A DNA stretch of 64,000 nt, taken from the NCBI GenBank assembly GCA_964403585.1, contig CAYOFQ010000001.1:204456-268455 (forward strand). Reading direction: 5' to 3'. The notes under the pieces were generated by a model. That model did not search any database. It was not told the origin of the DNA and worked only from the letters and a program-made list of their open reading frames with translations. Shown piece after piece: positions 21,284 through 43,342 of the stretch. The translations under genes were made by a program, and so were the position numbers. The first letter of the stretch is position 1; the number at the start of each line of letters is the position of its first letter. This stretch comes from an uncultured Gammaproteobacteria bacterium. Lineage in GTDB: Bacteria; Patescibacteriota; Microgenomatia; JALYQM01.

Positions 21284-21299
21284 TATACTTACCCCAGAT

Positions 21300-22961
21300 A
21301 TGAACAAATGGCTGATCGCAATACTCTTTCTCGCTGCCGCGTTTCGCCTTGTTCTAATCGGCGACCACATGGGCGCCTTATACGGAGATGAAATCTCTAT
21401 CGGTTATAATGCCTATTCAATACTCAAAACAGGCCAGGACGAGTTCGGCCGGTTTTTGCCGCTTCAATTTGAGTCCTGGGGTGACCAGAAAAACCCCGTC
21501 TACATTTATACCGTCGTGCCGTTTGAAATTGTCTTCGGTCTCAATGCCTGTGCGGTACGCCTCCCCTCGGCGCTCAGCGGCATCCTCGCCATTTGGCTAA
21601 CCTATTTGCTGGTTAGAAAATTATCCCGATTTTTCGAAGACTCACCGCAAAACCGGAATAAGAGTGAACAGGTAGCATTAATTGCAGCCCTGCTTCTGGC
21701 GGTATCCCCCTGGCATGTCCATATCAGCCGGGGAGGATACGAGGCAAATATGGCACTAACGCTTGGGCTGTCTGGAGCGTATTTTCTGTTAGCGTGGCTG
21801 CAGGACAGAAAGTGGAAATATTTCCTGCTCTCAATTGGAGCATTCGTGCTCTCCATGTACACCTATTACACAACTAAATTATTTGTCCCGCTGCTCATTA
21901 TGTTACTGTGGAGCTGGGGCTATTGGATGACCCGGGAAAAGAATGCGCGAAAATTTCTTCATTTTGCCGCCCGCTATATAATCTTATTCGTTATTTTGTG
22001 TCTTCCAATTCTGTATTTAGCGCTCTTCTCCAATGGTCAGGCCCGTTTCGCTACCATTAATATTTTTTCCAACCCGCAAGTTGCCAAAGACGTCGATGTG
22101 ATGCGCAGCCCTTCAATGCTTTCACCAAGTCTTACTGAGATACTTGTGAACAAGCCATACGTCTGGTTCCGGGATTTTCTGCAGTATTATTCGGATAATC
22201 TTTCACCTTCTTTCTGGTTCGTCAACGGAGATAGCTCTTTGAGATATAGTATTGGCAATCACGGGATGTTGTATTTAATTGAAGCTCCATTTTTTCTGGT
22301 TGGATTTCTGTTTATGTTTCAGCGCAACCGGAAACTATGGATTCTACTGCTGGGGTGGATGCTATTGGCTCCGTTACCGACAGCTCTGGTGGGTAAAGCA
22401 TATGGTCTACGCAGTTTGGCACTGCTGCCGATTCCCATGATTTTTTCAGCCTACGGCTTTGTGACACTAAACGAATATATTAAAACCTACTATTCATACC
22501 GTATTGTGCGCATATTCTCGGTAATCGTCGCGTTCATTTTAATCGGATCGGTAAGCAATTGGCTGGTCCGGTACGCATATATTTATTCATCGTATGGGTA
22601 CTACTGGTATGACGGCATGACCAAAGATGCCATTTCCTATGCGCTGCAGCAGAGCCCTCGGTATAACCATGTCTTCATCTCCCGGTATTACGGAAAGACC
22701 GAAATGTACTATGCCTTTTATACCAGAATGAACCCCGAAGAATACCGCCGTTGCTCGCAGCATAAAGTGACCTATGAAGGCGAAGAAATGATACAATGTG
22801 GCAAATACATCTTTGGAGATATGGATACCAAAAACCGGGTTATAGATGACCTCCACCTTCCATCAAATTCACTCGTCATCGACGCCCCGGACGGTACTAG
22901 AGGTTCGGATTCCATACTGGCCCGAGACGATCAAAGAGAGTTGTTTAAAATAATAAAATGA
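21300..22961 (+). CDS. GT-C glycosyltransferase, PMT/ArnT-like (GT39/GT83-type, PMT_2); paralog A
   Basis: Polytopic membrane protein; first-loop DE motif YGDEISIGYNAYSIL; conserved PWH (SPWHVHISRGGYEAN) and C-terminal periplasmic domain shared with paralogs; stop overlaps the next start. Confidence 0.7.
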   Translation: MNKWLIAILFLAAAFRLVLIGDHMGALYGDEISIGYNAYSILKTGQDEFGRFLPLQFESWGDQKNPVYIYTVVPFEIVFGLNACAVRLPSALSGILAIWLTYLLVRKLSRFFEDSPQNRNKSEQVALIAALLLAVSPWHVHISRGGYEANMALTLGLSGAYFLLAWLQDRKWKYFLLSIGAFVLSMYTYYTTKLFVPLLIMLLWSWGYWMTREKNARKFLHFAARYIILFVILCLPILYLALFSNGQARFATINIFSNPQVAKDVDVMRSPSMLSPSLTEILVNKPYVWFRDFLQYYSDNLSPSFWFVNGDSSLRYSIGNHGMLYLIEAPFFLVGFLFMFQRNRKLWILLLGWMLLAPLPTALVGKAYGLRSLALLPIPMIFSAYGFVTLNEYIKTYYSYRIVRIFSVIVAFILIGSVSNWLVRYAYIYSSYGYYWYDGMTKDAISYALQQSPRYNHVFISRYYGKTEMYYAFYTRMNPEEYRRCSQHKVTYEGEEMIQCGKYIFGDMDTKNRVIDDLHLPSNSLVIDAPDGTRGSDSILARDDQRELFKIIK

Positions 22962-24739
22962 AAAAAATACTATTAGTCGGCACTATTCTCATCGGATTTA
23001 TACTTCGTTTTTACCAGTTGGGATCTATTCCGCCTTCCTTATATTGGGATGAAGTCGCCCTTGGGTACAATGCTTTTTCCATTGCCGAGACAGCTAAAGA
23101 TGAAGAGGGGAGATTTCTTCCCTTAAATTATTTCCGCTCATTCGGAGATTTTAAGCCGCCGGTATATATTTATGCAGCTGTTCCCATGATTAAATTTTTT
23201 GGATTAAGCGAATGGACGACCAGATTTCCGTCCGCGTTTTTTGGTTCTCTTTCAGTCGTGTTGTGCTATCTCATCACCCGACAGCTGCTCAAGCGGCTTT
23301 CGAGTAATGAATCTACGTTTCTCAACCAATCCCGAATCGAATGGATTTCACTCGCAGTAACTGTGCTTATGGCCATTTCACCGTGGCACACCCAAATTTC
23401 GCGGGTTGCCTATGAAGCCAATGTTGCGTTATTCCTCATCCTGCTAGGCGTATATTTATTTTTTCATGCCTTGGAAAATCAGTCACGTAAAACACTCTTG
23501 TTAACTCTCGCGGGACTCTCCTTTGTCTTAACGTTCTATACCTTCAACTCTAACCGTGTTTTTACACCTTTGTTGGTAGCATTATTAGCCATACTCTATC
23601 GTAAGCAATTATTCCCGACACAAAAAGCAATTCGTCAGGTACTGGTAGCGACACTTATCGGCTTAGCCGTATTGTTGCCGCTGCTTCCACACCTCGCCTC
23701 AAGTGAGGGCCGCCTGAGATACAAAGAAGTAAACATCTTTTCGGATGCTAAACCGGTCGAGGTTTCTAATCAACGCATCTCCCGGTTAGGAGATACCTGG
23801 TGGGCAAATATTCTCAATAATCGCCGGATTATTTATGCCCAGAATTGGTTTGACGGATATTTCAGACACTTCTCCGGTAAATTCCTATTCATTTCCGGTG
23901 ATGTTAATCCACGCTTTTCGCTGCAGGATGTCGGAGAGCTCTATCTCATCGAGTTGCCGTTTCTGATCATCGGTTTGTACCTATTTGCTTCCCGCCACAA
24001 AACCGAGCATCTCTTTGTCCTCGGCTGGATGCTGCTGGCACCAATTCCTGCTGCCTTTGCCCGCGAAACACCACATGCGCTTCGCACCCTCAACATTTTG
24101 CCGACTTTTCAGATCCTCGAAGCCTACGCCTTTATCTATGTTGTCTACCGGTTATATAAATATCAGTTTAAACAGATTCGTTTGCCGGCCATCTCAGTTA
24201 TTGCGCTGACCGTGCTATTCCTGTTTTTCAATATGTATTACTATTTGCATAATTATTACGTTCACTACCCTCGCTGGACTTCCCAGGAGTGGCAATATGG
24301 ATATAAACAGGTCATCAATGAAGTCGCCAAAGTCCAGGATCAATACGACCGGATTATTATTACCGACGGACTGGGACGGCCATATATTGAAACCGCGTTC
24401 TATCTTAAGTACCCGCCCGCTCAATTTCAGAAGGAACGCCGCCAGCACACCGATGCGACCGGTTTTGGGTTTGTTGAAGTCGATGGGTTTAATAAATATG
24501 AATTCCGCGGAATAGACTGGAAAAAAGAGATACCCAAACAGCAGGAAAGGGAGCGAGTCTTGTTGGTGGGAACACCGGCTGAACTTTCCAAACAGAAATA
24601 TTTCAAAAAAATTGTTCCCCGTTTAAACGGAGAAACCGTCTTTATCTTAAGTGATATCCCCTCAGGCATCGATGCATTAATCGAACTGGGGTTTTTAGAT
24701 GAAAACGGCAACCCGATCATTAAAGACGAAGCCCGGTAA
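22958..24739 (+). CDS. GT-C glycosyltransferase, PMT/ArnT-like; paralog B
   Basis: LYWDEVALGYNAFSIA, SPWHTQISRVAYEANVALF, LYLIELPFLIIGLYLF, LGWMLLAPIPAA and a YGYK C-terminal domain. Confidence 0.7.
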   Translation: MKKILLVGTILIGFILRFYQLGSIPPSLYWDEVALGYNAFSIAETAKDEEGRFLPLNYFRSFGDFKPPVYIYAAVPMIKFFGLSEWTTRFPSAFFGSLSVVLCYLITRQLLKRLSSNESTFLNQSRIEWISLAVTVLMAISPWHTQISRVAYEANVALFLILLGVYLFFHALENQSRKTLLLTLAGLSFVLTFYTFNSNRVFTPLLVALLAILYRKQLFPTQKAIRQVLVATLIGLAVLLPLLPHLASSEGRLRYKEVNIFSDAKPVEVSNQRISRLGDTWWANILNNRRIIYAQNWFDGYFRHFSGKFLFISGDVNPRFSLQDVGELYLIELPFLIIGLYLFASRHKTEHLFVLGWMLLAPIPAAFARETPHALRTLNILPTFQILEAYAFIYVVYRLYKYQFKQIRLPAISVIALTVLFLFFNMYYYLHNYYVHYPRWTSQEWQYGYKQVINEVAKVQDQYDRIIITDGLGRPYIETAFYLKYPPAQFQKERRQHTDATGFGFVEVDGFNKYEFRGIDWKKEIPKQQERERVLLVGTPAELSKQKYFKKIVPRLNGETVFILSDIPSGIDALIELGFLDENGNPIIKDEAR

Positions 24740-24743
24740 CGTT

Positions 24744-26465
24744 ATGCGAAGTAAATTATTACTACTGACTATTTTAAGCGCCGCACTTCTTCGTTTCGTG
24801 GGGTTGGGACACAATCCACCGGCATTAAATTGGGATGAGGTTGCTATTGGGTGGAATGCCTATTCTATACTCGAAACGGGAAAAGATGAGTATGGAGCTG
24901 TTTTTCCACTAACATTCCGCTCTTTTGACGATTACAAATCACCACTGTATATTTACCTCACTTCAGTAGCAATAATGCTGTTTGGTAAGACCGAATTTGC
25001 CATTCGTTTTACTTCTGCTTTTTTCGGCACGCTAACCGTTATTATTTTTTACTTTTTCACCAAGCGCTTACTTAAGACAGCCTCCACCGACCCAATCTGG
25101 CAAAACCGCATCGCCAATGTCGCTCTCTTTGGAACCGGCATTATGGCTATTTCGCCCTGGCATGTTCACTTCTCTCGTGTTGCTTTTGAAGCAAATATCG
25201 CCCTGTTTTTTGAAATACTCGGCACACTATTATTCTTACGTTGGGTTGAACGGCGAAAATATTCGACCATCATCTTTTCCGTTCTTGCCTACGCCGCCGC
25301 GCTGTATTCATATGCCAGTGCCCGCTTAATTATTGCTCTACTACTCGTGGGTTACGGAATCTACTTTCATAAAGTTTTATTCAAAGCCAAAAAGCAGGTT
25401 AGTCTGGCCATTATCTGTGCGTTAATTGTAAGCATCCCGCTGATCATGCAAATGTACCAGGGGGTCGGATTTGCCCGCTTTAATGCCACAACTATCCTCG
25501 GCAAAAATGTCATCGAAATCTTTACCCGCAACGATACCTTAGCTAAAGAAGACTTTGACGCCGGAAATGGCTGGCTCAGTTCCAAAGTGCACAATTTTCG
25601 CATTCCAATCGCTACCAATGTGATTCAAAATTATCTCTACCATTATAATTACGGCTTCTTATTTAATTCTGCCGACCTGCCCCGCCACCAGATTCCCGGC
25701 TTTGGATTATTGTATCTATGGCAACTCCCGTTAATCGCCATCGGAGCAGTCTTTTTAATTAAAAACAGGAAACAGATCAATGCCGTTCTTCCCTTGTGGT
25801 GGCTGTTTATTGCACCCATTCCGGCTGCTTTGACATGGCAGGTACCGCACGCCATTCGTGCATTGGCTATGCTACCCATCTTCAGTGTTTTAAGTGGACT
25901 TGGGTTGTGGGCATTCTTCAAATGGATGCAAAAAATCGACCTTCGTGCGTATACCAGACCAATGGCCACTACTACCCTGGAAAAAATGCAAAATCTATTT
26001 CACTGGATTTGGCCGAAAACAACCTATCTTCTAACCATGTTTCTCATGTCTATCTCTGCCGTCCAAATGGTCGTTAGTTACCATGTTCTGCTGCCCGCCG
26101 AATTTAGTCCGTACTGGCTGTACGGCAGAAAAGAAATGGTTAGCCAGGTGGAAAACAGAAAAAATAATTTCGATCACGTTGTTGTATCTCTATCTTTGGA
26201 TTGGGCATATCTCTGGTTCTTGTGGTACGGAAATTATGATCCGCAATGGTATTTAAACCAGGGGGGAACGGTCAGCGGAAGTTTTGAGGAATCACAAAAC
26301 ACGGTTGGAAAAATCCAATTCTTTAACTTTGATTATTTTAAGCTGAAACAAACACCAAACATTCTCATGATCGGATCACCCAAGGATTTCCCCGGCGGAA
26401 TCATTCCTGATCAACAGATTCTGGATCTTTCGGGGAAACCGATCATCTATATCGTTAAATCATGA
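24744..26465 (+). CDS. GT-C glycosyltransferase, PMT/ArnT-like; paralog C
   Basis: LNWDEVAIGWNAYSIL, SPWHVHFSRVAFEANIALF, LYLWQLPLIAIGAVFL and LWWLFIAPIPAALTWQVPHAIRAL. Confidence 0.7.
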   Translation: MRSKLLLLTILSAALLRFVGLGHNPPALNWDEVAIGWNAYSILETGKDEYGAVFPLTFRSFDDYKSPLYIYLTSVAIMLFGKTEFAIRFTSAFFGTLTVIIFYFFTKRLLKTASTDPIWQNRIANVALFGTGIMAISPWHVHFSRVAFEANIALFFEILGTLLFLRWVERRKYSTIIFSVLAYAAALYSYASARLIIALLLVGYGIYFHKVLFKAKKQVSLAIICALIVSIPLIMQMYQGVGFARFNATTILGKNVIEIFTRNDTLAKEDFDAGNGWLSSKVHNFRIPIATNVIQNYLYHYNYGFLFNSADLPRHQIPGFGLLYLWQLPLIAIGAVFLIKNRKQINAVLPLWWLFIAPIPAALTWQVPHAIRALAMLPIFSVLSGLGLWAFFKWMQKIDLRAYTRPMATTTLEKMQNLFHWIWPKTTYLLTMFLMSISAVQMVVSYHVLLPAEFSPYWLYGRKEMVSQVENRKNNFDHVVVSLSLDWAYLWFLWYGNYDPQWYLNQGGTVSGSFEESQNTVGKIQFFNFDYFKLKQTPNILMIGSPKDFPGGIIPDQQILDLSGKPIIYIVKS

Positions 26466-27266
26466 CGCTAAAACCTGCTCTTTTGCCCACTGCAGACTTT
26501 CCCAGTGTTTAGCCGGAATTCGTTCATGAGGGACATGGGACCACATCGCCAGTGAAGCCGCGAACTGGTCTTTAAACGCCCGCAGACAAATACTTTTATA
26601 AAACGCATCAATCGGCACTTGCTTTAGTTCATTGGTATAGAGCGTATACTGCCGCTCCATATAGTTGGAAATATCATCCGGAAAATAATAGTTTGGATCA
26701 TACGCAGGAGACACTGACCACTTACTCAGAAAATGGTACGTTCCCAGATTCCCGTCAACAATATCCAGAACCCGGGCAATATACGCGATCGGCAGAATAA
26801 CACATTCAGGGTCACCGTCTTTGTTCTCCAATACTGCTTTAGCTTTATTGAATTGTGAATAAAGGACATAGTCTTCCGCATCAAACATCCGCTGCGCTAC
26901 CATGTTCTCGTTAACTTCAATTTCCAGATCCGCATTATGATCAATCCCTTTATCCACGGCCGGAATATCCAGCGTCTCAATTTCCGGGAGATCATGTAAC
27001 CACAACATTCGCACCAGCATCTCTTTGTCGTCTTCTTCAATGTACAAAGATTCGGCCCACCGCACCAACCGGTGCAGATGCGCTAGGTCATTATCCGTAA
27101 TAAGATCGGGTGGATACCGGTTACTTTTGCCTCGTACAATCGATGCTGTCTGTTTAACCAGATCCTCCAAATCTTCAGGAACTTCAACAGGAATACCCAG
27201 TTTATCCCGGTAAAGGTAGGTAAACACAAATGGTTCGTACACCAGTTCGTTTTCAGGCATACACAA
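26460..27266 (-). CDS. hypothetical protein, possible HD-domain hydrolase
   Basis: HRLVRWAESL...LWLHDLPEIETLD resembles an H..HD..D metal-binding arrangement. Confidence 0.35.
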   Translation of the reverse strand: MCMPENELVYEPFVFTYLYRDKLGIPVEVPEDLEDLVKQTASIVRGKSNRYPPDLITDNDLAHLHRLVRWAESLYIEEDDKEMLVRMLWLHDLPEIETLDIPAVDKGIDHNADLEIEVNENMVAQRMFDAEDYVLYSQFNKAKAVLENKDGDPECVILPIAYIARVLDIVDGNLGTYHFLSKWSVSPAYDPNYYFPDDISNYMERQYTLYTNELKQVPIDAFYKSICLRAFKDQFAASLAMWSHVPHERIPAKHWESLQWAKEQVLAS

Positions 27267-27322
27267 AGTATATCATTTTAAGCGCATTTACCCGCACCGA
27301 GTTACAGTGTAAAATTCTTCAT

Positions 27323-27835
27323 ATGTCTGAACTGGAAATCGAAGTAACGTATCTGGCCAAATATCTTCCTCCCGGGCTGGAAGAAAGTCCGCATAGTGAA
27401 ATCTACGACAAACTTCTTACCAATGATCCGGTCTCACGAATCCGTTTACGGCAGCAAGATGATACCTACAACCTCACCAAGAAAACCAAACCCGACAGTG
27501 AAGATGCCTCTACTCATATCGAACAAACTATAGAGCTCAGTCAGACCGAATTTGAACTAATGAAAACATTACCCGGACTGGAGTTACATAAGACCAGGTA
27601 TTTTTATGATTACAACGGCCTAAAAATGGAGGTCGATGTCTTTCAGGATAATTTCGAAGGACTGGTAACCGTGGAATGTGAATTTCCCACCAGGCGCGAA
27701 AAAGATACTTTTGTGATGCCGGATTTTTGTTTAGTCGATGTAACACAGGAAAAATTTATCAGTTTTGCCTACGGAACAACCTATGAAGATTTTCAGGACG
27801 TCCTCAATAAATACAGCTATGTTCGTCTCTGTTAA
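27323..27835 (+). CDS. CYTH domain protein (triphosphate tunnel metalloenzyme / CyaB-like)
   Basis: N-terminal ELEIEVTYL resembles the CYTH EXEXK motif; about 170 aa. Confidence 0.45.
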   Translation: MSELEIEVTYLAKYLPPGLEESPHSEIYDKLLTNDPVSRIRLRQQDDTYNLTKKTKPDSEDASTHIEQTIELSQTEFELMKTLPGLELHKTRYFYDYNGLKMEVDVFQDNFEGLVTVECEFPTRREKDTFVMPDFCLVDVTQEKFISFAYGTTYEDFQDVLNKYSYVRLC

Positions 27836-29505
27836 ATAGATTCGTTACACGGCGCAATCAGCGGCAACTCGGGAGTTATTTCATACACATATCCCATTTC
27901 ATGAACTCCATTGGTAGATTTGGCTACAAATACCGGCCTAACAGTTTCCAGTTTTTTGTCACTCACATATACCAGTAACTTGCCACTCTCGCGAGCCAGA
28001 CAAACCAGGTCTTTCGGTTCTACATGTCCAACCTGCACAGACCCTAAACGCTGTGCATGCCTGAAGCCAATTTCATCCGCCGGAAGATACCTGGTCTCCC
28101 GTTGAAAAGTTTCCGGGTCGGTCTTCATATAAAATGCATAGAACATCAGCGGGTCCGAGAAGAACGGTTCGATCTGCATCGCAGTAGTTGAATCATATTT
28201 CTGCAGATAACCGGCCAACTGCCGAACATGCGAGTTATACAATATTTCATATTTAGTCGTATGAATGGTAAAAAAGTTTACATAAAACATATACGATTGA
28301 ACTCCCACTCCAGCCGCCACCACTAATGCTCCCAGGTACAGCCTCTTTCTCGGCAGCAAAGTGAATACATATTCAAACCCAAACGCTACGACAATAAACA
28401 GAAAAACAAACGAGGCCGATACCCGCATTTTATTCACATCTCCCGCCAGGATTGAAGGGATAGGCGTCGTAAATAGTGCGACAAGAACAACTAAAAATGC
28501 TACAGCATTCGTTCGCCGGTTCTTTAACAGATAATATAGTCCCGCCGCAAAGAAGGGGAGGGTAATTAGATAGAATTGCCCAAAGTCGGGAATCGAGTAC
28601 GCCAGCTGTTCCTTATCTCCACGACTAAACAAATATTCCGGTGAATACAATCCAATCAGGCGTTGTGTCAGTATCTGCCCGTACACCAGCACTTTATTTG
28701 CCGAAACGGCACACAGCTTCGGATGTAAATACAAACCGCAGTAATTACGTTCTTCAGTTATTTTCATTAATGGACCGGGATCATTGGCAAAACCAACCTG
28801 CTTGAGCCGGGATGTTCCAACGTTCCCTGCCAGTAACAACGGCACAATTAAAACCGCAGCCACCACACTCATCATTCCAATCTGCTTTAAATTTACTGCT
28901 TTCCGGTAATACAAAACGGCCAGAACCACCGGGAAAAAGAGTAACGTTACAAAACGATACGCCACATACGAATACCACGACAACAAAGCACTAACTGCAG
29001 TCAGTACCCAAAATAGCGTTCGTTTTGTTCCAATAGCCTTCAGTAAAAAAAGCACAGATAAGGCAAAAAACAACAGGCCAAGTGTCGACTCACGCCCCAG
29101 CCTGGCCATAAAAAAACTAAACGGACTTATCGCCATAATCAAAGTAGCTACCAGAGACACTCGTTTGGATATTCGTAGTTCACGCAGAATAAAATAATAT
29201 ACAGGCACCAGTGCCAATGCAGCTAACGCCGCCGGCATACGCGCAACCGCGGTCGTTAATCCAAATAGTGCAATTAACGGTACCATTGTATAGACATACA
29301 GCGGCATCTTTTGATCACCGTACGACTCGAAAACCAGAGGAAGAAATTTCCCGTGCTCATCATGTCCCGTTAACAACACCGAGTAGGCACTATATGCAAA
29401 CGCCGGCTCATCCACCAGCATGCCGTTAGGGGCAGAACCAAGGTTATAAAAATACACAAAACCCACCAGGAGAATGAGTATCATGAGCACGAGTGTACTT
29501 TTCAT
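27832..29505 (-). CDS. GT-C glycosyltransferase, PMT/ArnT-like; paralog D
   Basis: GMLVDEPAFAYSAYSVL, SPFSFFMARLGRESTLGLLFFAL, FYLITLPFFAAGLYYL; start at Met 29505. Confidence 0.65.
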   Translation of the reverse strand: MKSTLVLMILILLVGFVYFYNLGSAPNGMLVDEPAFAYSAYSVLLTGHDEHGKFLPLVFESYGDQKMPLYVYTMVPLIALFGLTTAVARMPAALAALALVPVYYFILRELRISKRVSLVATLIMAISPFSFFMARLGRESTLGLLFFALSVLFLLKAIGTKRTLFWVLTAVSALLSWYSYVAYRFVTLLFFPVVLAVLYYRKAVNLKQIGMMSVVAAVLIVPLLLAGNVGTSRLKQVGFANDPGPLMKITEERNYCGLYLHPKLCAVSANKVLVYGQILTQRLIGLYSPEYLFSRGDKEQLAYSIPDFGQFYLITLPFFAAGLYYLLKNRRTNAVAFLVVLVALFTTPIPSILAGDVNKMRVSASFVFLFIVVAFGFEYVFTLLPRKRLYLGALVVAAGVGVQSYMFYVNFFTIHTTKYEILYNSHVRQLAGYLQKYDSTTAMQIEPFFSDPLMFYAFYMKTDPETFQRETRYLPADEIGFRHAQRLGSVQVGHVEPKDLVCLARESGKLLVYVSDKKLETVRPVFVAKSTNGVHEMGYVYEITPELPLIAPCNESI

Positions 29506-29548
29506 TTTGTTGTGTATATACTGAGATAGAAAACTAGGACAATTATAT

Positions 29549-31279
29549 ATGCAACTCAAAAAAATAGGAATTATCGCCGTTTTTCTTTGTCTTATTATTG
29601 GTCTTTACCTCAGATTTTACAAGCTTACAACTGTTCCGGATATGCATTTAGACGAAATGTCGTTTGCCTATACTTCTTATTCGTATATAAAAACCGGGCT
29701 TGATGAATTTGGAAAACCTCCCGGAATTGTTTTTGAATCATTAGGCGATTACAAACTGGCACCATTTGCATTCGCAACTATGCCATTTGCTGCGATATCC
29801 GGGCTCGAGCCAATAACGGTACGATTGCCGTCTGCTTTATTCGGGTTAGGCACGGTGCTCTGTTTATACTTACTGGTAAATAGGCTCTATAAAAACAAAG
29901 CACTCGCTATCACAAGCGCATTGCTGTTGTTACTATCCCCCTGGCATATACTTTTCTCCAGAACAGGCAACGAAGCTTCACTGCAACTTTTCAGTATCAT
30001 TGCCGGAATGTACCTGTGGGCGTTATTCAGAAGCACTGAAAAGAAAAAATATCTCTTTTTATCCATACCGTTATTCTTAATCGGATTATATTCGTATTAT
30101 TCATCATTCGTATTCCTTCCTGCCTTTCTGCTGTTCCTGCCGTTGTTTAATAACAGAGGATCCCGCATCGTACACGCTCTACCCTTTGTAGTTATATCGC
30201 TACTTTTTCTCTTATTCTTTTTAACTCAGCCGACCCAGCGCGTAGGCCAAACCAGTTTTTTTAAGCATGGAGAAGTAGAGGCGTTGGTTACCGAAAGTCA
30301 TAGTGAAGAGAATGGTACGTTGCCGTTACCGATCGTCAGACTAATCCACAATAAATTCACTGTTGGCACGCAGTTATTGATTCGCAATTATTTCCAGCAC
30401 TACACCTACAACTTCCTTTTTCTTGAAGGCGATCCCTCATATGGAAGATACTCGTTACCGTTCCAGGGGCCGCTATACATTTGGATGCTTCCGTTCCTGG
30501 TCATCGGCGTAGGTATAGCATCACATAAAATGATCGTGAACAAACAGTGAATTTACGGATTAATGGTACTCTGGATGGCCATAGGTTTTTTGCCCGATTC
30601 CCTCTCATTCGAAATTTATATTCAGCGAACCTTACTGGTATTACCGGCGTTAGTATTTTTCACTGCTTTGGGGCTCATTTCTACCTACACGTACCTTGTC
30701 AAAAATTTTCCTAAATTTAATCCACAACCAATTTTATATATACTTAGCGCCGGAGTAATGATTGTTTCGCTGGTGCTTTTTTGGGACGCCTATTTTATCC
30801 ACCAGCGGATCCACCAGCCATGGCATCGGCAGGGGTGGGCACATGAATTTATAACAACGTTAAATCAGTTGGCTCCACAATATCCTCAAACAGTCATTGC
30901 CCGGGATTCACATATCCTGTACCTGTTTAATGAAAAGGTTGAGCCTCAGGAAGCACAGCAATTGCTTCGAGGAAATATTTCATCCAACGGCAGTTTCAAC
31001 TCTTTGACTAAATACAAGGACTATTTATTTATGCCAAATGATTGCCCGCTCGCCGGCAAATTAGATGTTCTTTATGTTTGCAACGGCGAAAAAATTCCAT
31101 TCAATAGCAAGGTACAAGCAGTTATCCGCTACCCGAGCAACGTACCGGCAAAAATCTTCATTACCTTTACTGAGCCAACTGCTGAGAACAGCCTAACCAA
31201 GGGTGACCGAATCAGTATTATGGAGGATACGATTAAAGATCCTAAAATCTTATCGGACGAGTATCCCGGTTACTGGTAA
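29549..31279 (+). pseudogene. GT-C glycosyltransferase, PMT/ArnT-like; paralog E interrupted by in-frame TGA at 30548-30550
   Basis: ORFs 29549-30550 and 30563-31279 are in the same frame; the sequence across the TGA (HKMIVNKQ*IYGLMVLWMAIGFLPDS) aligns with conserved KNRKQINAVLPLWWLFIAPIPAA of paralog C. Confidence 0.6.
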
Positions 31280-32836
31280 TTATTTAAATCGTTCCTCAAC
31301 CAATAATTTTCTGAAATTTTTTCGCGCTGTGGTCGGCCGTACTTGTAACCGCTGTATTCTCGAAAAGTCATTATTTAAGCCACCAACTAATCCTTCAAAC
31401 GGCTCGTAAATCGAAAAGTGTCTATCGCTATACTTCTCTGTCTGCGGCAATAGATCTCCCCCGGCCCGTCCGTCCTGATTAGCTCCATAAAACTCCGGCA
31501 CATAGCCATACGTCTTTTTACCATACCAGCTATACAAATACGCCCAGGTAGTATTAATTTCATACGGATTGGTATACGTCGAGAAAGTAAACGGCTGTTT
31601 GTTTGCTTGCTGGTACGTATAATCTATCAGCGCCAGTTGATCGCGCAACGTCGCCTCTTTCTGTATCACAAATATGCTCACTCCTTCGGCTTTGCGCAAC
31701 AGGAGGAATTGCACGTTAATATAGAGCAAAACGCTCAGTAGCGCCACAGTAATTATCCGTCCGGCTACACTCTGCCAGATTGTCACTAATGCAAAACTCA
31801 CCACGATATATACAAGCAGGGAAACGCCCAACAGTGAATGACTCTCACTGCGAGGTTGTAGCAGTTCCACTACCAGCGGTGAAAGCATAATTATCGCCAC
31901 AAAATACTTCGCCTGTTTTGCTGCATACCAAAGAAACGCACCAAGGCTGATGAGAAACAATGCAGCGGCAAAAATCTGGTAAATATCCCAGGGAAGCAGG
32001 GGGAGCGAAATTAGTTCATAGTACACTCGTGAAATAACTTTAAGTTTATCCGCCCAAAACAAACTCCGTTCCGAAAAATCCTGTAAATCCCGACCGGAAA
32101 ATAATCCGCTGCGTAATATCCGCACTTCAGTCAAAATCATTGTCGCAATAGTTAATACATAAAACACGACACCGAGTAGCACCGGCCACGAGGGAACAGG
32201 GAATTCTTTTCTGCGCCGTAAAATAATCACGGCCCCAACAAACATTGCTACCCACAAATAAACAGTATAGAGAAATGCCTGATTCGCCAACCCTAAGAAC
32301 AAAAACAGGAGCGGGATACGATTGTATGCCTGTTCAAAAACCACCCGCCAGTACAGATAGAAAAACACGCTCAAAATAATGGGCACTAACGCCGGATTGG
32401 AAATCCACACACCTGCGTGCACCGGTTGTCCAAATACCGCAAACATAAAGCTTGCCAGAATGCCTACCAGTGTACGTCCGGTAATTTTCTGCGCCAGAAG
32501 AAACACTGGAATGACGGTTAGCGAATTCAGAAAGCTTAACGCTACCGCCACCCAATACGGACTGCCTCCAAAGAGGGTATACAATAACCCGATCAGGTAA
32601 TAATAAAACACCCCATGATACAAAATATCATTCGAGCCGCTCGCCGATGGCCCTTGTATCTTTATGTCACCTTTTTCAAAAATACTTCGCGAAACCGCCG
32701 CGTCCCGCGCTTGATCATAAAAGAAATGCACATCATTATTGGAGATAACCGCCAAACGCACTGCAAAAGCCAAAACCACTAAAGCAATAATAAGTAAGCG
32801 GGTATTAGAGCGAGATATCTTGACCATTTTTTCCAT
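31280..32836 (-). CDS. GT-C-like polytopic membrane protein, divergent subfamily (FFYDQARD loop motif); paralog H
   Basis: About 13 TM helices; N-terminal loop FFYDQARDAAVSRSIFEKGDIKIQGP is paralogous to FLFDQGRDMLDVKEIVVGHHPTLIGP of the 34942 gene. Confidence 0.45.
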   Translation of the reverse strand: MEKMVKISRSNTRLLIIALVVLAFAVRLAVISNNDVHFFYDQARDAAVSRSIFEKGDIKIQGPSASGSNDILYHGVFYYYLIGLLYTLFGGSPYWVAVALSFLNSLTVIPVFLLAQKITGRTLVGILASFMFAVFGQPVHAGVWISNPALVPIILSVFFYLYWRVVFEQAYNRIPLLFLFLGLANQAFLYTVYLWVAMFVGAVIILRRRKEFPVPSWPVLLGVVFYVLTIATMILTEVRILRSGLFSGRDLQDFSERSLFWADKLKVISRVYYELISLPLLPWDIYQIFAAALFLISLGAFLWYAAKQAKYFVAIIMLSPLVVELLQPRSESHSLLGVSLLVYIVVSFALVTIWQSVAGRIITVALLSVLLYINVQFLLLRKAEGVSIFVIQKEATLRDQLALIDYTYQQANKQPFTFSTYTNPYEINTTWAYLYSWYGKKTYGYVPEFYGANQDGRAGGDLLPQTEKYSDRHFSIYEPFEGLVGGLNNDFSRIQRLQVRPTTARKNFRKLLVEERFK

Positions 32837-34874
32837 CCTTAGTGAGGATCGTCCGCTTTAAAGCGCCTTGTTTATCCAGCAAAATAATTGTTCCTCCACT
32901 GTACCCGGCCAGCTGCGCATCATACTGTTTCTCCAGACCCTGTACTCCGTGGTAGTTATAACTACTATAAATCCGTGTACAGCACTCTGTATACGCAGTA
33001 TTAGTGATATGGGTATAGTCGGAGTTGGAATAAATGCGTGCAGGATAAGGAGTAACATAAACACCTTTATACGAAAGTAATTCTTTCTGATCTTCGGCTT
33101 TCAGGTCCTGCCACGTTGTCATCAGCATTGTCGGAACACCCGTTAAACGATTCTGCACATAATAGTCATGAATAACAACCGCCGTAAACCCGGTGAACCG
33201 TTCCAGAACATGCAGCAATTTTTCTTCCTGCTGTACCTCAATTTCATCCGGTCGCACGGAAATAGCAAATCCCTGTTTGTCTTGCACAAGCACATGTCCG
33301 CCTTGCGTAATTGTTCCACGTTTCCCTAAAACCAGTGAAGTTTTAACGGTATCTTCCGGGGAAAAATCCGCCAGTAATAACCCCCAGTTCCATTCCACGC
33401 CCCAGCGGTTATGCACTCGTTTCAGCTGTAACTCTTTCGTTTCGGTAAATGATCCCAAATCCTGCGTATGATACGTCAATTCAACGTTTACTTTCCCGTT
33501 ATCTCCCGCAAATTCCCGTGACACCTCTTTAAATGAAATTGCCCTGACACCGGCATTAAATAAGGCGGTCTTGGCAATTGTCTGAAACATCTCCCGTTCT
33601 GTCGCCTGCACGCTTGAACGGGTTGTGTTTTCCTGGTACACATCAGAGAAAAATTGCTTTGAAAAATTCGTATAATATCCGGCTAATACCGAATCCGGCT
33701 TAGCTGTTAAAAAGCTTGGGGCATACAACAGTAAAATAATAATCGCCATAACAGCCACAGTTCCCGGACCTTGAACCCGACGATAGCCTAATGAAAACTT
33801 GGCAACCAGTAAATAAATAAACGGCAGTACCAGCAATAAGTAGCGGCTGTAAAACGGAATGCGCATGTACATAATAATCGACGCAATTAGGATGAGTGCC
33901 ATTCCTCGCCACACCAGAGTTTCCTTTTTCGAATACAGCACATATACCGCCACGCCTAAGCCGATCGCGCCCAATATCGGCCACAAGTACGTCCACTCAA
34001 TTACCGTTTCCAGGTTACCGGAGTTAACATTCGGCACCTTACCGGTAAATAATGATTGAAGTACTCCCAGCGGATGCAAAGGCAGTTTTGAAATAAGATA
34101 AATCGTCGCGATATATTTATGGAATTTAACCAGTTCAAGTATGCTGTGACCGAGCATAAAATAGCGGGCATACACCAGCAGAACCGCTACACCAAAACCG
34201 GCATAGTAGGCAAAAACCTCTTTCCACCAGCGTTTTTTTACCAAATAAGCTGTCTCCAACAACACCAGGACTGGAAATAATGTCTGCATTTTCGTTTCAA
34301 AGAATAAACACACCGCCGCACCACTCAGCACCGCCAGCCATAATCGCCTTCGTTCACTTTCCACCAGATACACAAAAGCAGACAAGTTCAACAGCAGGAA
34401 AAACAACTGGTAAATATCCAGCCAGGATTTCCAAAGTTGGGAAAAGAACAGGGGATCAAGATAAAACAGTGTCGTCACCAGCAATGCCGCCGACCTGTTT
34501 TTCAAAAGCTTTACACCTAATAAGTACAAACACACTAACGACCCAACACCAGCCAAAAAGGCCATCCACGCCACATTCCCGAACCACTTAATTGAAAAAC
34601 CAACCAGATACAGCGCCGCCGGTGGCTTATCTGTAATCACCAGCGACGGATCATCCCCCTGACTCAAACGGTACCCGGCATGGGCATACAACGCGTCATC
34701 ACCAATCGGGCGCTGGGATAACCGCAGTTGCCACTGCGAATGATCATAGCGATCCTTCCAGTACGCCACATCATACTTTTCACTAAAAGAGGTCCAATTA
34801 TAGGAAAAAATCAAATACGTCTGTATTACCAGCATTACTATACAGAAATAGGGAAGGAGTTTTGCTATTTTCAT
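32805..34874 (-). CDS. GT-C glycosyltransferase (PMT/ArnT-like, DD motif) fused to C-terminal PBP-dimerisation-like domain; paralog F
   Basis: N-terminal membrane domain with IGDDALYAHAGYRL; the C-terminal ~270 aa soluble domain ends with GLEKQYDAQLAGYSGGTIILLDKQGALKRTIL, which resembles the G.EK.YD..L.G..G......D..G signature of the PBP2/FtsI dimerisation domain. Confidence 0.5.
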   Translation of the reverse strand: MKIAKLLPYFCIVMLVIQTYLIFSYNWTSFSEKYDVAYWKDRYDHSQWQLRLSQRPIGDDALYAHAGYRLSQGDDPSLVITDKPPAALYLVGFSIKWFGNVAWMAFLAGVGSLVCLYLLGVKLLKNRSAALLVTTLFYLDPLFFSQLWKSWLDIYQLFFLLLNLSAFVYLVESERRRLWLAVLSGAAVCLFFETKMQTLFPVLVLLETAYLVKKRWWKEVFAYYAGFGVAVLLVYARYFMLGHSILELVKFHKYIATIYLISKLPLHPLGVLQSLFTGKVPNVNSGNLETVIEWTYLWPILGAIGLGVAVYVLYSKKETLVWRGMALILIASIIMYMRIPFYSRYLLLVLPFIYLLVAKFSLGYRRVQGPGTVAVMAIIILLLYAPSFLTAKPDSVLAGYYTNFSKQFFSDVYQENTTRSSVQATEREMFQTIAKTALFNAGVRAISFKEVSREFAGDNGKVNVELTYHTQDLGSFTETKELQLKRVHNRWGVEWNWGLLLADFSPEDTVKTSLVLGKRGTITQGGHVLVQDKQGFAISVRPDEIEVQQEEKLLHVLERFTGFTAVVIHDYYVQNRLTGVPTMLMTTWQDLKAEDQKELLSYKGVYVTPYPARIYSNSDYTHITNTAYTECCTRIYSSYNYHGVQGLEKQYDAQLAGYSGGTIILLDKQGALKRTILTKDGKNGQDISL

Positions 34875-34941
34875 AACTACCTAAGAATAGTACCATTATA
34901 CACAAGTACAGCCTAGGTACTGCCCAAAACGTTGAGAGTAT

Positions 34942-36444
34942 ATGAAAAAAATACTGCAATTCTGCATAAATGAATTCCGGCAGCACAAGCTGGATTATCT
35001 GCTCATACTGCTCATCGTACTCACCTCAGCCTTCTTCCGTTTTAAACCGCTTTTTACCGGAGATTTTGTGTTTCTTTTTGACCAGGGCCGCGACATGCTC
35101 GACGTCAAAGAGATCGTTGTCGGTCATCATCCAACACTTATTGGACCATTCACTGGTATGAAAGGGTTATTCCAGAGCCCGATGCATTATTACCTGTTAG
35201 CCATTCCTTTCATACTCACCGGAGGTCACCCGGCGGGAGGCATCGCCTTTACCATTATCACGTTTTTGGTTGGCATAACCCTGGCCTATGTTTTGGGTAA
35301 ACGCATGTACGGACGCCTTTTTGGACTATTTTTCGCCCTCATTTTTGCTTTTGCCCAAGGCTCAATGAGCAATTCCGCTAATTTCTGGAATCCTAACTGG
35401 ATCCCGCCGCTCATGGTGCCCTATTTATATTCGTTGTATCGCAGCAGAAAAGACCTTCGCTGGTTGCTCGCCGTCAGTTTTCTCGTAGGGTTGATGTCCC
35501 AGTTCGAAGCCGCCTTTGGCGTCATGCTGCTTATTTCAACCCTGTTGTTTTTACTCGTCTCATATCCGAAAGTATTCATCTCCAAATGGTTTTATCTCTC
35601 CGGCATCGCCTTTGCGATCAATTTTATACCGCAGGTCCTTTTTGACATCCGCCATGAGTACATGATGACCAATACCTTAGTCAATTTAATCACCGGTCGA
35701 ACCGAATCCTTGGGTATACCAATCCCATTCGATGTCCGCTTCTGGTACCGCATCGATGAAGTAACCAAAGCCACCATTTTTACAATACTCTACGATCGAA
35801 CACTCGCCCTGACAACACTTATCCCGATTCTTGGCACCCTCATAATTGCCGTTAGGAAAAAAGACTGGTCGACCATCAAAGCCCAACTGTTCTTTGCCGG
35901 CATTCCCTTCTGTTTGTTCCTCGTTTTCCTGGCCTTTCCACTTCCCGCCTGGGCGTGGTACTGGACGGGTCTACAAGTTTGCTACTATGCCCTAGTTGCG
36001 TATTCCTGTGCCTATCTTTGGCACTTCCATAAATTCGCCAAAGTTCTCGACGCCCTATTGCTCGCTCTCTGGGTAGGCTTGGCCACCTTCCCGGCCTTTA
36101 TTCCTTCCAACATGCCCGAAGAACCGGGAACCTTCAAAACCCAAGTTAAAATTATGGACGATATCTACGCCGATGCCGCCGGAGAACCGTTTGGTGTTTT
36201 TGTTTACACTCCTCCCATTTATGACTTCGCGTTCAAGTATTTGTTCTGGTGGCGGGGCATCACTAAATACAATTATGTTCCAACCGACTCCAAAGACGGC
36301 ACGTTCTATTTAATCATTGAACCCAACAAAGACAATCCACTCGCCATCGACGGTTGGAAAAAGACAGTCATTAAAGAAGGACAAACCGTCTGGACCAAAA
36401 AATATCCGGGAGATATTGAGGTAGAGAAGAGACAGGGGAAATAA
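34942..36444 (+). CDS. GT-C-like polytopic membrane protein, divergent subfamily (FLFDQGRD loop motif); paralog I
   Basis: About 12 TM helices plus a C-terminal soluble domain; paralogous to 31280-32836. Confidence 0.45.
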   Translation: MKKILQFCINEFRQHKLDYLLILLIVLTSAFFRFKPLFTGDFVFLFDQGRDMLDVKEIVVGHHPTLIGPFTGMKGLFQSPMHYYLLAIPFILTGGHPAGGIAFTIITFLVGITLAYVLGKRMYGRLFGLFFALIFAFAQGSMSNSANFWNPNWIPPLMVPYLYSLYRSRKDLRWLLAVSFLVGLMSQFEAAFGVMLLISTLLFLLVSYPKVFISKWFYLSGIAFAINFIPQVLFDIRHEYMMTNTLVNLITGRTESLGIPIPFDVRFWYRIDEVTKATIFTILYDRTLALTTLIPILGTLIIAVRKKDWSTIKAQLFFAGIPFCLFLVFLAFPLPAWAWYWTGLQVCYYALVAYSCAYLWHFHKFAKVLDALLLALWVGLATFPAFIPSNMPEEPGTFKTQVKIMDDIYADAAGEPFGVFVYTPPIYDFAFKYLFWWRGITKYNYVPTDSKDGTFYLIIEPNKDNPLAIDGWKKTVIKEGQTVWTKKYPGDIEVEKRQGK

Positions 36445-36458
36445 TAAATTTAGTAAGG

Positions 36459-36464
36459 TATAAT
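36459..36464 (+). promoter_or_regulatory. -10-like hexamer TATAAT 7 nt upstream of GTG 36472
   Basis: GGTATAATCTCCACA-GTG with no SD. Confidence 0.3.
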
Positions 36465-36471
36465 CTCCACA

Positions 36472-38103
36472 GTGAAGAAATTTCTATTCTGCACCATTCT
36501 TATACTCGCAATTGCACTCAGGTTCTACAAACTTGGCGTCGTACCCGGCTCACTCGATTGGGACGAAGTCTCCCTTGGTTACAATGCCTATTCATTATTA
36601 CTCAACGGCACCGACGAATACGGCAATACCTGGCCCTTATCCATTCGCTCATTCAATGACTACAAACCGCCTGCCTATGCCTATTTGGACATCATCCCGA
36701 CTGCCATTTTCGGTTTGAATGAATTTGGCACCCGCTTTCCGGCAGCGTTCTTTGGTTCACTCGCAGTGATTGGGGTATATTTTCTCACCAGAGAATTATT
36801 TCGCAATGAATCCAAACTCCCGCTTATCGCCATGTTTATTTTCGCCATCTCACCCTGGCACTTACAGTTCTCCCGCGCGGCCTTTGAAGGCAACATCGCC
36901 GTTTTCTTTGTAATTTGGGGAATGTATTTTCTCCTACGCTGGTTTCGCAATAACAAGCTGTATGAACTATTACTTGCCGCCGGACTGTTCGCCGGATCAC
37001 TCTACGCCTACCACGCCGCCCGCCTGATCGTTCCGTTGTTACTCTTCGGCGTAGCACTGAGGTACCGAAAGCACTTTTTAGCCCGAAAGCAATCCGTACT
37101 TACCGCGGCCGCCCTCGGTATAATTTTAGTTCTTCCAGTTGGTCTCACCTTAATTCGCGGCAGTGCCTCTGAACGGTTCTCTTCAGTCAGCATTTTTAGT
37201 CCGACGACCGAAATTCTTCGTCCGCTGGAATATGAACGCGAAGACAAAGCCACGGTGAACTGGAATTCCTGGTTACACAACCGCCGAATCGAATACGTCA
37301 AGGAATTTGTCGAAGGCTATGTTAATCATTTCAGTCCGGTGGCGATGTTCATGAAGGGCGACGTTGTCGAACGGCACCATGCTCCCGACATGGGATTATT
37401 TTATGTTATTGAATTACCGTTTATTCTAATCGGCATCTTTACCCTTATTGAAAAGAGATTTAATTATAAATTCCTGTTCTTCTACTGGGCGGCCATTGCA
37501 CCGCTACCTGCGGCTATCTCAACCGGCACGCCCCACGCCATTCGCAGCATTTTATATTTACCGCTCCCGCATATCGCCATCGCAGTGGGAATTTTCCAAA
37601 CGTATCAATTCATGACACAATATTTTAAGCAACCTAAATTCAACACCAGAACTCCCGCTATAACCATCGGAATTATCTTCGCGCTCTATCTCGGCAACTT
37701 TGCCTATTATCTCAATCAATATTATGGACATATGAACGTTGAGTATGCCGAATACTGGCAGTACGGCTACAAGGATTTAGTCGAGTATCTCCGACCAATT
37801 GAAGGTAAGTACGACAAGATCGTCGTAACTCCTGCCTACGATCAGCCCTATATTTACTTCCTCTATTACAAACAATACGATCCCCGGGTTTGGATTAATA
37901 ATGGTGAATTTAATAAAGGTTTCGATAAATACGAATTCCGCAAAATGGACTGGTATCAGGATCGCAAATTGCATAACACCCTATTAATAGGGGATAAGCT
38001 GGAAATTCCGGAGGGCGAAGCCGGAACCATTAAAGTGTTGCGCTATCCCGAAGGAACCAAAGGAAACCGGGACATTTTCAGGATCATTCCCTCGCAATAT
38101 TAA
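36472..38103 (+). CDS. GT-C glycosyltransferase, PMT/ArnT-like; paralog G
   Basis: GTG start; LDWDEVSLGYNAYSLL, SPWHLQFSRAAFEGNIAVF, FYVIELPFILIGIFTL, YWAAIAPLPAAISTGTPHAIRSI and YGYK C-terminal domain; TATAAT 7 nt upstream. Confidence 0.7.
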   Translation: MKKFLFCTILILAIALRFYKLGVVPGSLDWDEVSLGYNAYSLLLNGTDEYGNTWPLSIRSFNDYKPPAYAYLDIIPTAIFGLNEFGTRFPAAFFGSLAVIGVYFLTRELFRNESKLPLIAMFIFAISPWHLQFSRAAFEGNIAVFFVIWGMYFLLRWFRNNKLYELLLAAGLFAGSLYAYHAARLIVPLLLFGVALRYRKHFLARKQSVLTAAALGIILVLPVGLTLIRGSASERFSSVSIFSPTTEILRPLEYEREDKATVNWNSWLHNRRIEYVKEFVEGYVNHFSPVAMFMKGDVVERHHAPDMGLFYVIELPFILIGIFTLIEKRFNYKFLFFYWAAIAPLPAAISTGTPHAIRSILYLPLPHIAIAVGIFQTYQFMTQYFKQPKFNTRTPAITIGIIFALYLGNFAYYLNQYYGHMNVEYAEYWQYGYKDLVEYLRPIEGKYDKIVVTPAYDQPYIYFLYYKQYDPRVWINNGEFNKGFDKYEFRKMDWYQDRKLHNTLLIGDKLEIPEGEAGTIKVLRYPEGTKGNRDIFRIIPSQY

Positions 38104-42409: not shown

Positions 42410-43342
42410 TTACGCTTTTTGTCGCATCTCCCAGTACTTCACATAGCTCGAAGCAATATGTAAGGCAGAATAAATGGCCCACACCAGCCCCGGGAAACCG
42501 TCCTTGTATCCGCCATGGCGGAAATACAGCGAGAGAAATGTGATTTTGGGAGCGATAACCATATAGTAAAAATGCGAGAAGAATGATATTCCCGGGGCTT
42601 TTGAATCGGGGCCAAGTAACCCAGACATACCGCTCTTACCGACATTTGCTAACCACTGCTTGGCTTGCAATGAAGTATAAAAATTCGACCGAGTTAAGTA
42701 ACGCTCAAATGCAGGATCTGCCATATGAATAAGATCATGAGAAAGAAACGAAACCTGCCCGTCAATCACCATTTGGTCATGCACATCTTTCAGACCGTAT
42801 TTCGCTCGACCGCGTCGAACTAAACGAATCGTCCCATCCGGATACACGCCACCATGCATGAGATATTTTCCGAGAAAGTAATTCTTGCGGGGCATAAAAA
42901 AAGCCGCAATCGGTCCGTCTTCAGTACCGATATGCCCCTCGCGGGCAATCAGAAGTTCCATATGTCGCTTTAATAGCTCATATCTCGTCGCATCAACATC
43001 ATGATTCTCAAGCTCTTTCTCTGAACTCTCCACAATCTTACGAATTTCCTGGCCCAGTTCGGGAGTTACCCGCTCATCCGCATCCAACTGTAAAATCCAT
43101 TCTCCACTTGAAGCATCCAGGGATTTTTGCTTATTAATATGGAAAACAGGAGGATTATCCGTTTCAATGACCTTCGCTCCGAAAGTTTTAGCTATCTCCA
43201 CAGTCGTATCCGAGCTCCCACCATCAACAATCACTATCTCATCGGCAATAGCCTTAACCGAGTCCAAACAATCCTTCAGATTGCTTTCCTCATTAAAAAC
43301 AGCCAGCGCCACAGTTAATTTGACCGGTTTAGTATCTGTCAT
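42410..43342 (-). CDS. glycosyltransferase family 2
   Basis: LTVALAVFNEESNL...IVIVDGGSSDTT...LQLDADE are GT2 DXD-type motifs. Confidence 0.7.
   Translation of the reverse strand: MTDTKPVKLTVALAVFNEESNLKDCLDSVKAIADEIVIVDGGSSDTTVEIAKTFGAKVIETDNPPVFHINKQKSLDASSGEWILQLDADERVTPELGQEIRKIVESSEKELENHDVDATRYELLKRHMELLIAREGHIGTEDGPIAAFFMPRKNYFLGKYLMHGGVYPDGTIRLVRRGRAKYGLKDVHDQMVIDGQVSFLSHDLIHMADPAFERYLTRSNFYTSLQAKQWLANVGKSGMSGLLGPDSKAPGISFFSHFYYMVIAPKITFLSLYFRHGGYKDGFPGLVWAIYSALHIASSYVKYWEMRQKA

Follow-up and report, generated by a model that had tools for sequence, protein, structure and literature searches.

A 64,000-nucleotide stretch of contig CAYOFQ010000001.1 (positions 204,456 to 268,455; hereafter the window) encodes a 689-amino-acid protein in which a membrane domain of the glycosyltransferase C (GT-C) fold is fused to the complete non-penicillin-binding module of a class B penicillin-binding protein (PBP) of the S. 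aureus PBP2a and B. subtilis PBP3 type. The coding sequence, complete with its stop codon, occupies 32805-34874 on the minus strand in the list of open reading frames (ORFs), coordinates re-verified, and all parts of the protein described below are encoded on that strand. An AlphaFold2 domain model compared by Foldseek identifies residues 1-389 (33708-34874) as a polytopic GT-C fold membrane domain; residues 393-505 (33360-33698) form an NTF2-like domain of the MecA_N type, delimited by Pfam, a family profile and predicted secondary structure; and residues 506-689 (32808-33359) form the pedestal, or PBP_dimer, domain, delimited by PF03717, NCBIfam and Foldseek. Both modules are well known, and their combination is conserved and uncharacterised. 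An earlier note on this DNA had proposed a GT-C enzyme joined to a PBP dimerisation module with no transpeptidase, a proposal that the Pfam matches, the predicted fold and the relatives of the protein bear out.

The soluble half matches PBPs along its whole length. Pfam places PBP_dimer (PF03717) at residues 518-675 (E = 7.4e-12; 46.5 bits, gathering cutoff 24.4), and the domain was detected in 33 of 33 family members. Because profile positions 5-178 of 180 are aligned, the match is to the entire domain; the earlier note was right to see this signature in the last 45 residues, but the match is not to those residues alone. MecA_N falls below threshold in the fusion protein itself (residues 393-504, E = 0.073) and is detected in 19 of the 33 members (lowest E 1e-8). 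In the model, the NTF2-like domain consists of three helices, a curved sheet and a WxxxWxW strand, with a helix-plus-sheet pattern at residues 393-494. This domain had been overlooked, and the soluble part, previously put at ~270 amino acids, in fact measures about 300 (residues 390-689).

Within NCBIfam, residues ~375-689 align solely to the N-terminal halves of full-length PBP models: positions 35-337 of 668 in PBP4(5), 8-326 of 668 in PBP2a and 36-231 of 593 in pbp2_mrdA. We then built a family profile from the 33 members and searched it against all PDB sequences. It matched B. subtilis PBP3 (7bn9) at E = 1.6e-22 over chain positions 25-327, S. aureus PBP2a at about 1e-17 over positions 9-302, and the N-terminal module of enterococcal PBP4 and PBP5 at 1e-15 to 1e-13; MrdA followed at about 1e-7 through its pedestal only, and FtsI at about 1e-3 through part of the pedestal. 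This ranking, with PBP3 and PBP2a far above MrdA and FtsI, places the module among class B PBPs of the MecA_N-bearing subclass. The AlphaFold model of the whole protein agrees: it is confident (predicted local distance difference test score (pLDDT) 88.7; predicted TM-score (pTM) 0.83), and its top 50 Foldseek matches in the PDB are all PBP2a, PBP5 or PBP3, reached through the soluble half at about 1e-13 over ~314 columns. Both searches had been suggested in the earlier note; the PBP_dimer match proved significant, and the fold is that of a PBP, not an unrelated carbohydrate-binding one.

The class B PBP motifs are retained as well. Motif 1, KRGTITQGGHVLVQD (residues 518-532; 33279-33323), keeps R519, G520 and D532 invariant; the equivalent of motif 2, YPARIY (residues 610-615; 33030-33047), has an invariant R613; and motif 3, GVQGLEKQYDAQLAGYSGG (residues 643-661; 32892-32948), has G643, E648, L655, G657, G660 and G661 invariant. 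The family consensus forms, KRGxIxDxxGxxLAxD, YPxRIY and GxxGxEKxYDxxLxGxxGG, are invariant or nearly so, and all three align with the matching segments of PBP3 and PBP2a. The two segments singled out in the earlier note are the second and third of these motifs; the first is an addition. Between motifs 2 and 3 lies a segment specific to the family, ECCTRIYSSYNYH (residues 630-642; 32949-32987), which is absent at the aligned place in PBP3 and PBP2a. The segment, with its C631-C632 pair and H642, is nearly invariant in the family and could form a vicinal disulfide or a metal site. A few members lack the cysteines and have ENSS or ENDT instead.

All family members stop a few residues past a GQDVxLxL segment. 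The segment aligned to it in PBP3 and PBP2a, G(E/K)D(L/I)(H/Q)L, is the entry to their transpeptidase domain, and it is at this boundary that the fusion protein terminates. Pfam found no transpeptidase domain (PF00905) in the protein. Nor did a tblastn search of the whole window in all frames with four transpeptidase domains find a remnant (best E = 0.13), and the same queries returned nothing across 15 related loci; as a positive control, the N-terminal module of one ordinary PBP of this kind (P0139) matched 33752-32823 at E = 3.8e-20. As the transpeptidase domain is absent, the fusion protein is not a PBP, and it and its relatives should not carry a penicillin-binding protein annotation.

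What precedes the module is an 11-13 helix GT-C domain and not a single anchor helix. A separate AlphaFold2 model of residues 1-392 (pLDDT 84.6, pTM 0.89) found GT-C enzymes in all of its top 25 Foldseek matches to the PDB, among them ArnT (5ezm; E = 2.8e-5, TM-score 0.57) and Pmt4 (TM-score 0.62); further GT-C matches included human and yeast STT3, PglB, ALG12, PimE, DPY19, Pmt1/2, AftA and EmbA-B. Pfam PMT or PMT_2 is detected at E < 0.01 in 12-13 of 33 family members (best E 3e-9), many relatives carry precomputed PF13231 or PF02366 matches, and NCBIfam has no match for the domain. We also considered a SEDS-pedestal fusion in disguise and ruled it out, since the membrane domain fails the SEDS fold test: RodA (6pl6_A) appears at rank 36 (E = 0.43, TM-score 0.27), a noise-level structural match, and no FTSW_RODA_SPOVE match was found by Pfam in the fusion protein or family members. 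The earlier note had called the protein a paralog of its neighbours. The kinship of its membrane domain with theirs is, however, remote, hhalign giving a probability of 36% over 113 columns against the PMT_2 neighbour at 36472-38103. That alignment stops short of loop 1, so an alignment of the GT-C DD/DE position with this neighbour is not demonstrable by sequence.

The first extracytoplasmic loop (residues 26-84; 34623-34799), placed by conservation and topology between transmembrane helices 1 and 2 on the outer side, is the best-conserved part of the protein, at 62% mean pairwise identity against 46% for the membrane domain as a whole. It is acidic and follows the pattern YDxxYWKDRxxHSQW...R-x-IGDD. 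Every member has D59, and at least 90% have D60, two carrying E instead; from this conservation and by analogy, D59-D60 (34695-34700) is a candidate for the catalytic acidic position (the GT-C DD/DE position) of ArnT-, PMT- and PglB-type enzymes. D153, K195, K253 and R344-Y345 are also invariant and lie on outward-facing segments. Across the family, the N-terminus and the loops at 173-176, 214-216, 315-319 and 364-369 are rich in K/R and poor in D/E and are therefore taken as cytoplasmic. With these fixed, the last helix (370-389) runs from inside to outside, which puts the predicted position of the PBP-like module outside the cell, as in genuine PBPs. The models also give a weak hint that the module packs on loop 1: residues 41-60 reach pLDDT 79/70 in the full-length model against 62/49 in the model of the N-terminal domain only, a gain of ~20 points where other blocks differ by a few, in models whose alignments differ in depth (33 versus 15 sequences).

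The fusion recurs in related genomes, as the earlier note had proposed checking. A word-indexed search returned 35 full-length relatives of ~690 amino acids at 35-43% identity, nearly all with a precomputed PF03717 match. When the 297-amino-acid module was run exhaustively against 1.84 billion representatives, it gave 103 matches at E ≤ 1e-10; almost all are proteins of ~690 amino acids that carry it at ~390-690, or pieces of such proteins. Matches weaker than roughly E ≈ 1e-13 were mainly ordinary PBPs of 650-760 amino acids with the module at ~30-340 and 23-26% identity; four of these were confirmed to combine MecA_N, PBP_dimer and Transpeptidase, and one is annotated as PBP3 of Clostridiales/Mahella. 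With the GT-C domain alone as query we obtained 93 clusters, and every full-length match was the same fusion. In the data searched, this GT-C subfamily and this module are thus found only together. Mean identity across the family is nearly uniform, at 48% for the NTF2-like domain, 49% for the pedestal and 46% for the GT-C domain. Two apparent stand-alone modules, P0110 (353 amino acids) and P0115 (491 amino acids), were rejected as fragments of the fusion family, because their N-termini begin within the last GT-C helices.

In GTDB, members come from 13 species genomes, in metagenome-assembled genomes of Levybacteria, Gottesmanbacteria, Roizmanbacteria and 'Patescibacteria group', and one NCBI member is named Candidatus Levybacteria. 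The family, about 100 clusters in all, is restricted in these data to Microgenomates-type bacteria of the candidate phyla radiation (CPR). An identical protein is present in public data (P0001), and a contig from a sequencing run, independent of this one, carries it as well. Database names of members are 'hypothetical protein' or, once, 'ArnT-like glycosyltransferase'. Of the records behind five loci (L002, L003, L005, L008 and L011), four bear the title 'uncultured Gammaproteobacteria bacterium' and one 'Candidatus Pacearchaeota archaeon'; on a CPR-restricted family such titles probably reflect placeholder names, mistaken taxonomy or mis-binned contigs.

The surroundings of the gene point to a surface-glycan synthesis locus and not to a divisome or cell-division cluster. 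The earlier note had floated a link to the peptidoglycan or divisome machinery, or a substrate-docking domain, as possible roles. Directly downstream, on the minus strand, a 518-amino-acid membrane protein (31280-32836) starts with an ATG at 32836 in another frame, so that the last 32 nucleotides of the fusion gene (32805-32836) overlap its start; this arrangement suggests translational coupling, and co-transcription is probable. The downstream protein has no Pfam match and clusters with a PMT_2-positive GT-C-like ORF at 34942-36444. By Pfam and sequence type, the fusion gene sits in an array of about nine GT-C-type genes on both strands (21225-38103). The array comprises at least two types, DE-motif PMT_2 proteins of ~543-593 amino acids and 'YDQxRD'-type proteins of ~500-518, and comparable arrays adjoin the fusion gene in loci L005 and L010. 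One plus-strand paralog in the array (29549-31279) is interrupted by an in-frame TGA at 30548-30550. Its two ORFs, 29549-30550 (PMT_2/PMT) and 30563-31279, share a frame and, when joined, give ~577 amino acids, like the neighbouring GT-C paralogs (575-593); the split could reflect a pseudogene, a sequencing error or stop-codon readthrough.

The window also holds GT2 and GT4 enzymes and a Wzx-like flippase. A plus-strand GT2 gene at 45996-46772 (258 amino acids) is a candidate polyprenyl-phosphate-sugar synthase from sub-threshold NCBIfam matches to PgfS, ArnC, PpgS and AglJ. Homologs lie near the fusion gene in five loci (L003, L004, L005, L010 and L011), and on this suggestive sequence evidence the enzyme may supply the donor. 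Another, recurrent GT2, of 310 amino acids at 42410-43342, was considered for the same role and set aside, as it has generic sub-threshold GT2 matches only. Beside the glycosyltransferase cluster, a plus-strand gene at 47953-50844 encodes a 963-amino-acid protein with a C-terminal CBM60 carbohydrate-binding module, an fn3 domain and a CarboxypepD_reg-like domain, likely a surface or secreted glycan-binding protein. Further along, a 385-amino-acid GT4 gene (58562-59719, plus strand) is overlapped at its 3' end by a 651-amino-acid ORF (59716-61671, plus strand). We had considered this pair (58562-61671) as a split SEDS/PBP pair, and it proved to be the GT4 and an unannotated protein; neither the 651-amino-acid ORF nor a 499-amino-acid ORF at 62249-63748 (minus strand) has a Pfam match at E ≤ 1e-3. 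No SEDS, class B PBP or MreC gene was found in the window. Five other genomes share the gene order GT2, YfhO (~770 amino acids), fusion, GT4 (overlapping the fusion stop) and YfhO, and Wzx-type (Polysacc_synt_3) flippases lie near the fusion gene in other genomes. All flippases in the window and related loci are Wzx-type, and none of the GtrA/GtcA type was identified there.

The soluble outer domain of GT-C enzymes generally recognises the acceptor, as in PglB, PMT and the Emb proteins. We infer that the fusion protein is a wall-directed glycosyltransferase using lipid-linked sugars, a reading to which we give an even chance and in which the part played by the module and the identity of the acceptor are the most conditional elements. 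At the outer face of the membrane, the GT-C domain would use the D59/D60 loop to take up a sugar carried on polyprenyl phosphate. The PBP-derived module, which stands where these enzymes usually have an extracytoplasmic C-terminal domain for acceptor binding, would sit above loop 1 and recognise peptidoglycan or wall-attached material, as in PBP2a, so that the sugar would be delivered to an acceptor associated with the cell wall. Among the Foldseek matches are PBP2a entries 3zg5 and 3zfz, in which a peptidoglycan analogue or muramic acid occupies the allosteric site of the same module. Pgp2 is a further precedent for peptidoglycan binding, through an NTF2 accessory domain (PMC8038945). Teichoic acids are glycosylated by YfhO-type GT-C enzymes with lipid-linked sugars made by CsbB-type GT2s (PMC5836110, PMC8035078).

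Several observations weigh against a wall-directed enzyme. The context itself gives no pointer to peptidoglycan, because no peptidoglycan-synthesis gene was found in the window or any related locus. On the fusion protein, Pfam PMT (residues 101-231) reaches 18.9 bits and so falls below its cutoff of 22.7. The putative catalytic residues are assigned by analogy with better-known GT-C enzymes, and the possible contact between the domains comes solely from a pLDDT difference between two models of unequal alignment depth. In addition, P0150, a divergent member of 713 amino acids, keeps the GT-C domain with an IGDDGL loop and the NTF2-like region, and its PBP_dimer domain is undetectable, the RG and GxxGxE motifs being absent. 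Since it has lost a recognisable pedestal and kept the rest, the pedestal has degenerated in at least one lineage and is not indispensable everywhere.

Alternative explanations differ widely in how well they fit these results. The conservation data effectively refute an artefact, be it truncation or decay of a class B PBP gene, a frameshift or a chimeric assembly. The TGA-broken paralog next door does betray some decay or sequencing error nearby; against this, the same ~690-amino-acid layout and end point recur in about 100 divergent clusters and in 13 species genomes of GTDB, the identical protein lies on an independent contig, and all parts of the protein are equally conserved with no transpeptidase remnant downstream. 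We also think it very improbable that the GT-C-like domain has no catalytic activity and anchors a PBP-like regulatory module in the membrane or acts as its sensor. A dead domain would account for the sub-threshold Pfam GT-C score and for the lack of an NCBIfam match, but not for the match of the fold to active GT-C enzymes, for loop 1 with its acidic pair being the best-conserved segment (62% identity) or for several more invariant charged residues on the outer face.

Two further alternatives keep the enzyme active and assign the module another task, and we consider each of them unlikely. In the main rival reading, the pedestal might keep its class B PBP role of binding SEDS proteins or regulators and, with the last transmembrane helix, plug the enzyme into a RodA/FtsW or an MreC/FtsQLB-like complex, coupling glycosylation to peptidoglycan polymerisation at the elongasome or divisome. 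The nearest relatives of the module (PBP3, PBP2a and PBP5) belong to the MecA_N-bearing PBP subclass, with MrdA and FtsI far behind, and to our knowledge this subclass has the least established case for a dedicated SEDS partner; and no SEDS, MreC, FtsL/B/Q or class B PBP gene was found in the window or 14 related loci. In favour of such docking, strict conservation extends to all three class B PBP motifs, helix 370-389 passes straight into the module like a class B PBP anchor helix, and one paper describes the class B PBP pedestal as a 'SEDS-interacting domain' and reports pedestal-SEDS fusions (PMC12516126). Plain exaptation, also improbable in our estimate, would make the module a structural cap or scaffold that replaced an ancestral periplasmic domain, the acceptor being unrelated to peptidoglycan (an S-layer or pilin protein, a lipid-linked glycan or a secondary polymer). 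The wholly glycan- or glycoconjugate-synthetic context would suit this, as would the very different soluble acceptor-binding domains of established GT-C enzymes (PglB, PMT, Emb); the ECC...H segment and the degenerate pedestal of P0150 show the module drifting from the PBP pattern. A generic scaffold, however, would not need the full NTF2 and pedestal layout with all three motifs kept at about 48% identity, and the module is present on every detected relative of the GT-C subfamily.

Class B PBP pedestals are currently treated as specific to SEDS-class B PBP pairs, in which they transmit activating signals to the glycan polymerase. A bolder possibility, which we rate as quite unlikely, is that the module acts on its fused glycosyltransferase as a pedestal acts on SEDS, sensing nascent peptidoglycan or a morphogenetic partner and activating the enzyme allosterically, and that the enzyme glycosylates or even extends wall glycan strands. 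If true, the pedestal would be a general regulator of membrane glycosyltransferases instead of a PBP-specific part, and CPR bacteria would have a peptidoglycan-directed GT-C activity.

Targeted full-text literature searching for the domain pair, by name or by Pfam accession, found no paper, in keeping with the earlier note's view that the fusion is undescribed. A whole PBP2a-type non-catalytic module under selection on a non-SEDS glycosyltransferase, with no transpeptidase, would be fairly surprising to a specialist. Since the module is conserved on an unrelated membrane glycosyltransferase in the absence of a transpeptidase, it must have a function of its own, which could be recognition of the wall or a ligand, or regulation of the membrane glycosyltransferase. 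The family thereby offers a natural 'module-only' system in which to ask what the NTF2-pedestal unit binds, a question relevant to the allosteric site of PBP2a, which is under debate. The family, which is confined to uncultivated organisms and whose function is a prediction, also hints at how ultra-small CPR bacteria with large GT-C gene arrays might tie surface glycosylation to the cell wall.

Set beside the MecA_N-bearing class B PBPs (S. aureus PBP2a, E. faecium PBP5 and B. subtilis PBP3), the fusion protein has the same NTF2-like extension followed by the pedestal, with motifs 1-3 in the same order over about 300 amino acids, and its module, like theirs, is predicted to be extracytoplasmic and directly follows a transmembrane helix. 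Unlike them it has no transpeptidase, and hence no SxxK, SxN or KTG motifs and, by prediction, no penicillin binding; a ~390-amino-acid GT-C domain replaces the single anchor, the ECC...H segment is added, and identity is 14-25%. With ArnT, PMT and PMT_2 enzymes it shares the GT-C fold, a long first outer loop with an acidic pair and an outer C-terminal soluble domain. That domain is PBP-derived, however, and not of the ArnT/PglB type or a MIR/CBM domain, and in sequence the protein resembles the Pfam models and the adjacent PMT_2 paralogs only marginally.

Also comparable are the SEDS-pedestal(-transpeptidase) fusions, in which a pedestal is likewise covalently joined to a membrane glycosyltransferase, and the 'pedestal-only' proteins, which likewise lack a transpeptidase. 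According to a 2025 census of class B PBP architectures, which describes SEDS-pedestal fusions, 2,572 InterPro proteins have a pedestal and no transpeptidase; its main text mentions neither PMT or mannosyltransferase nor a PMT/GT-C fusion (PMC12516126). Unlike the SEDS-pedestal fusions, the protein described here has a membrane partner that is not SEDS, and its gene lies outside a dcw or mrd context. The Gram-positive wall glycosylation systems, built from a CsbB/GtrB-type GT2, a flippase and a YfhO or other GT-C enzyme, differ in that no characterised member has a PBP-type module, and that here the donor synthase is tentative and a GtrA/GtcA-type flippase was not identified in the window or related loci. 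They resemble the fusion loci in gene content, as in several genomes the fusion gene has YfhO genes on either side and GT2s and a flippase close by, and the logic expected of both would be the same: transfer of a lipid-linked sugar to a polymer of the wall on the outer side of the membrane (PMC5836110, PMC8035078).

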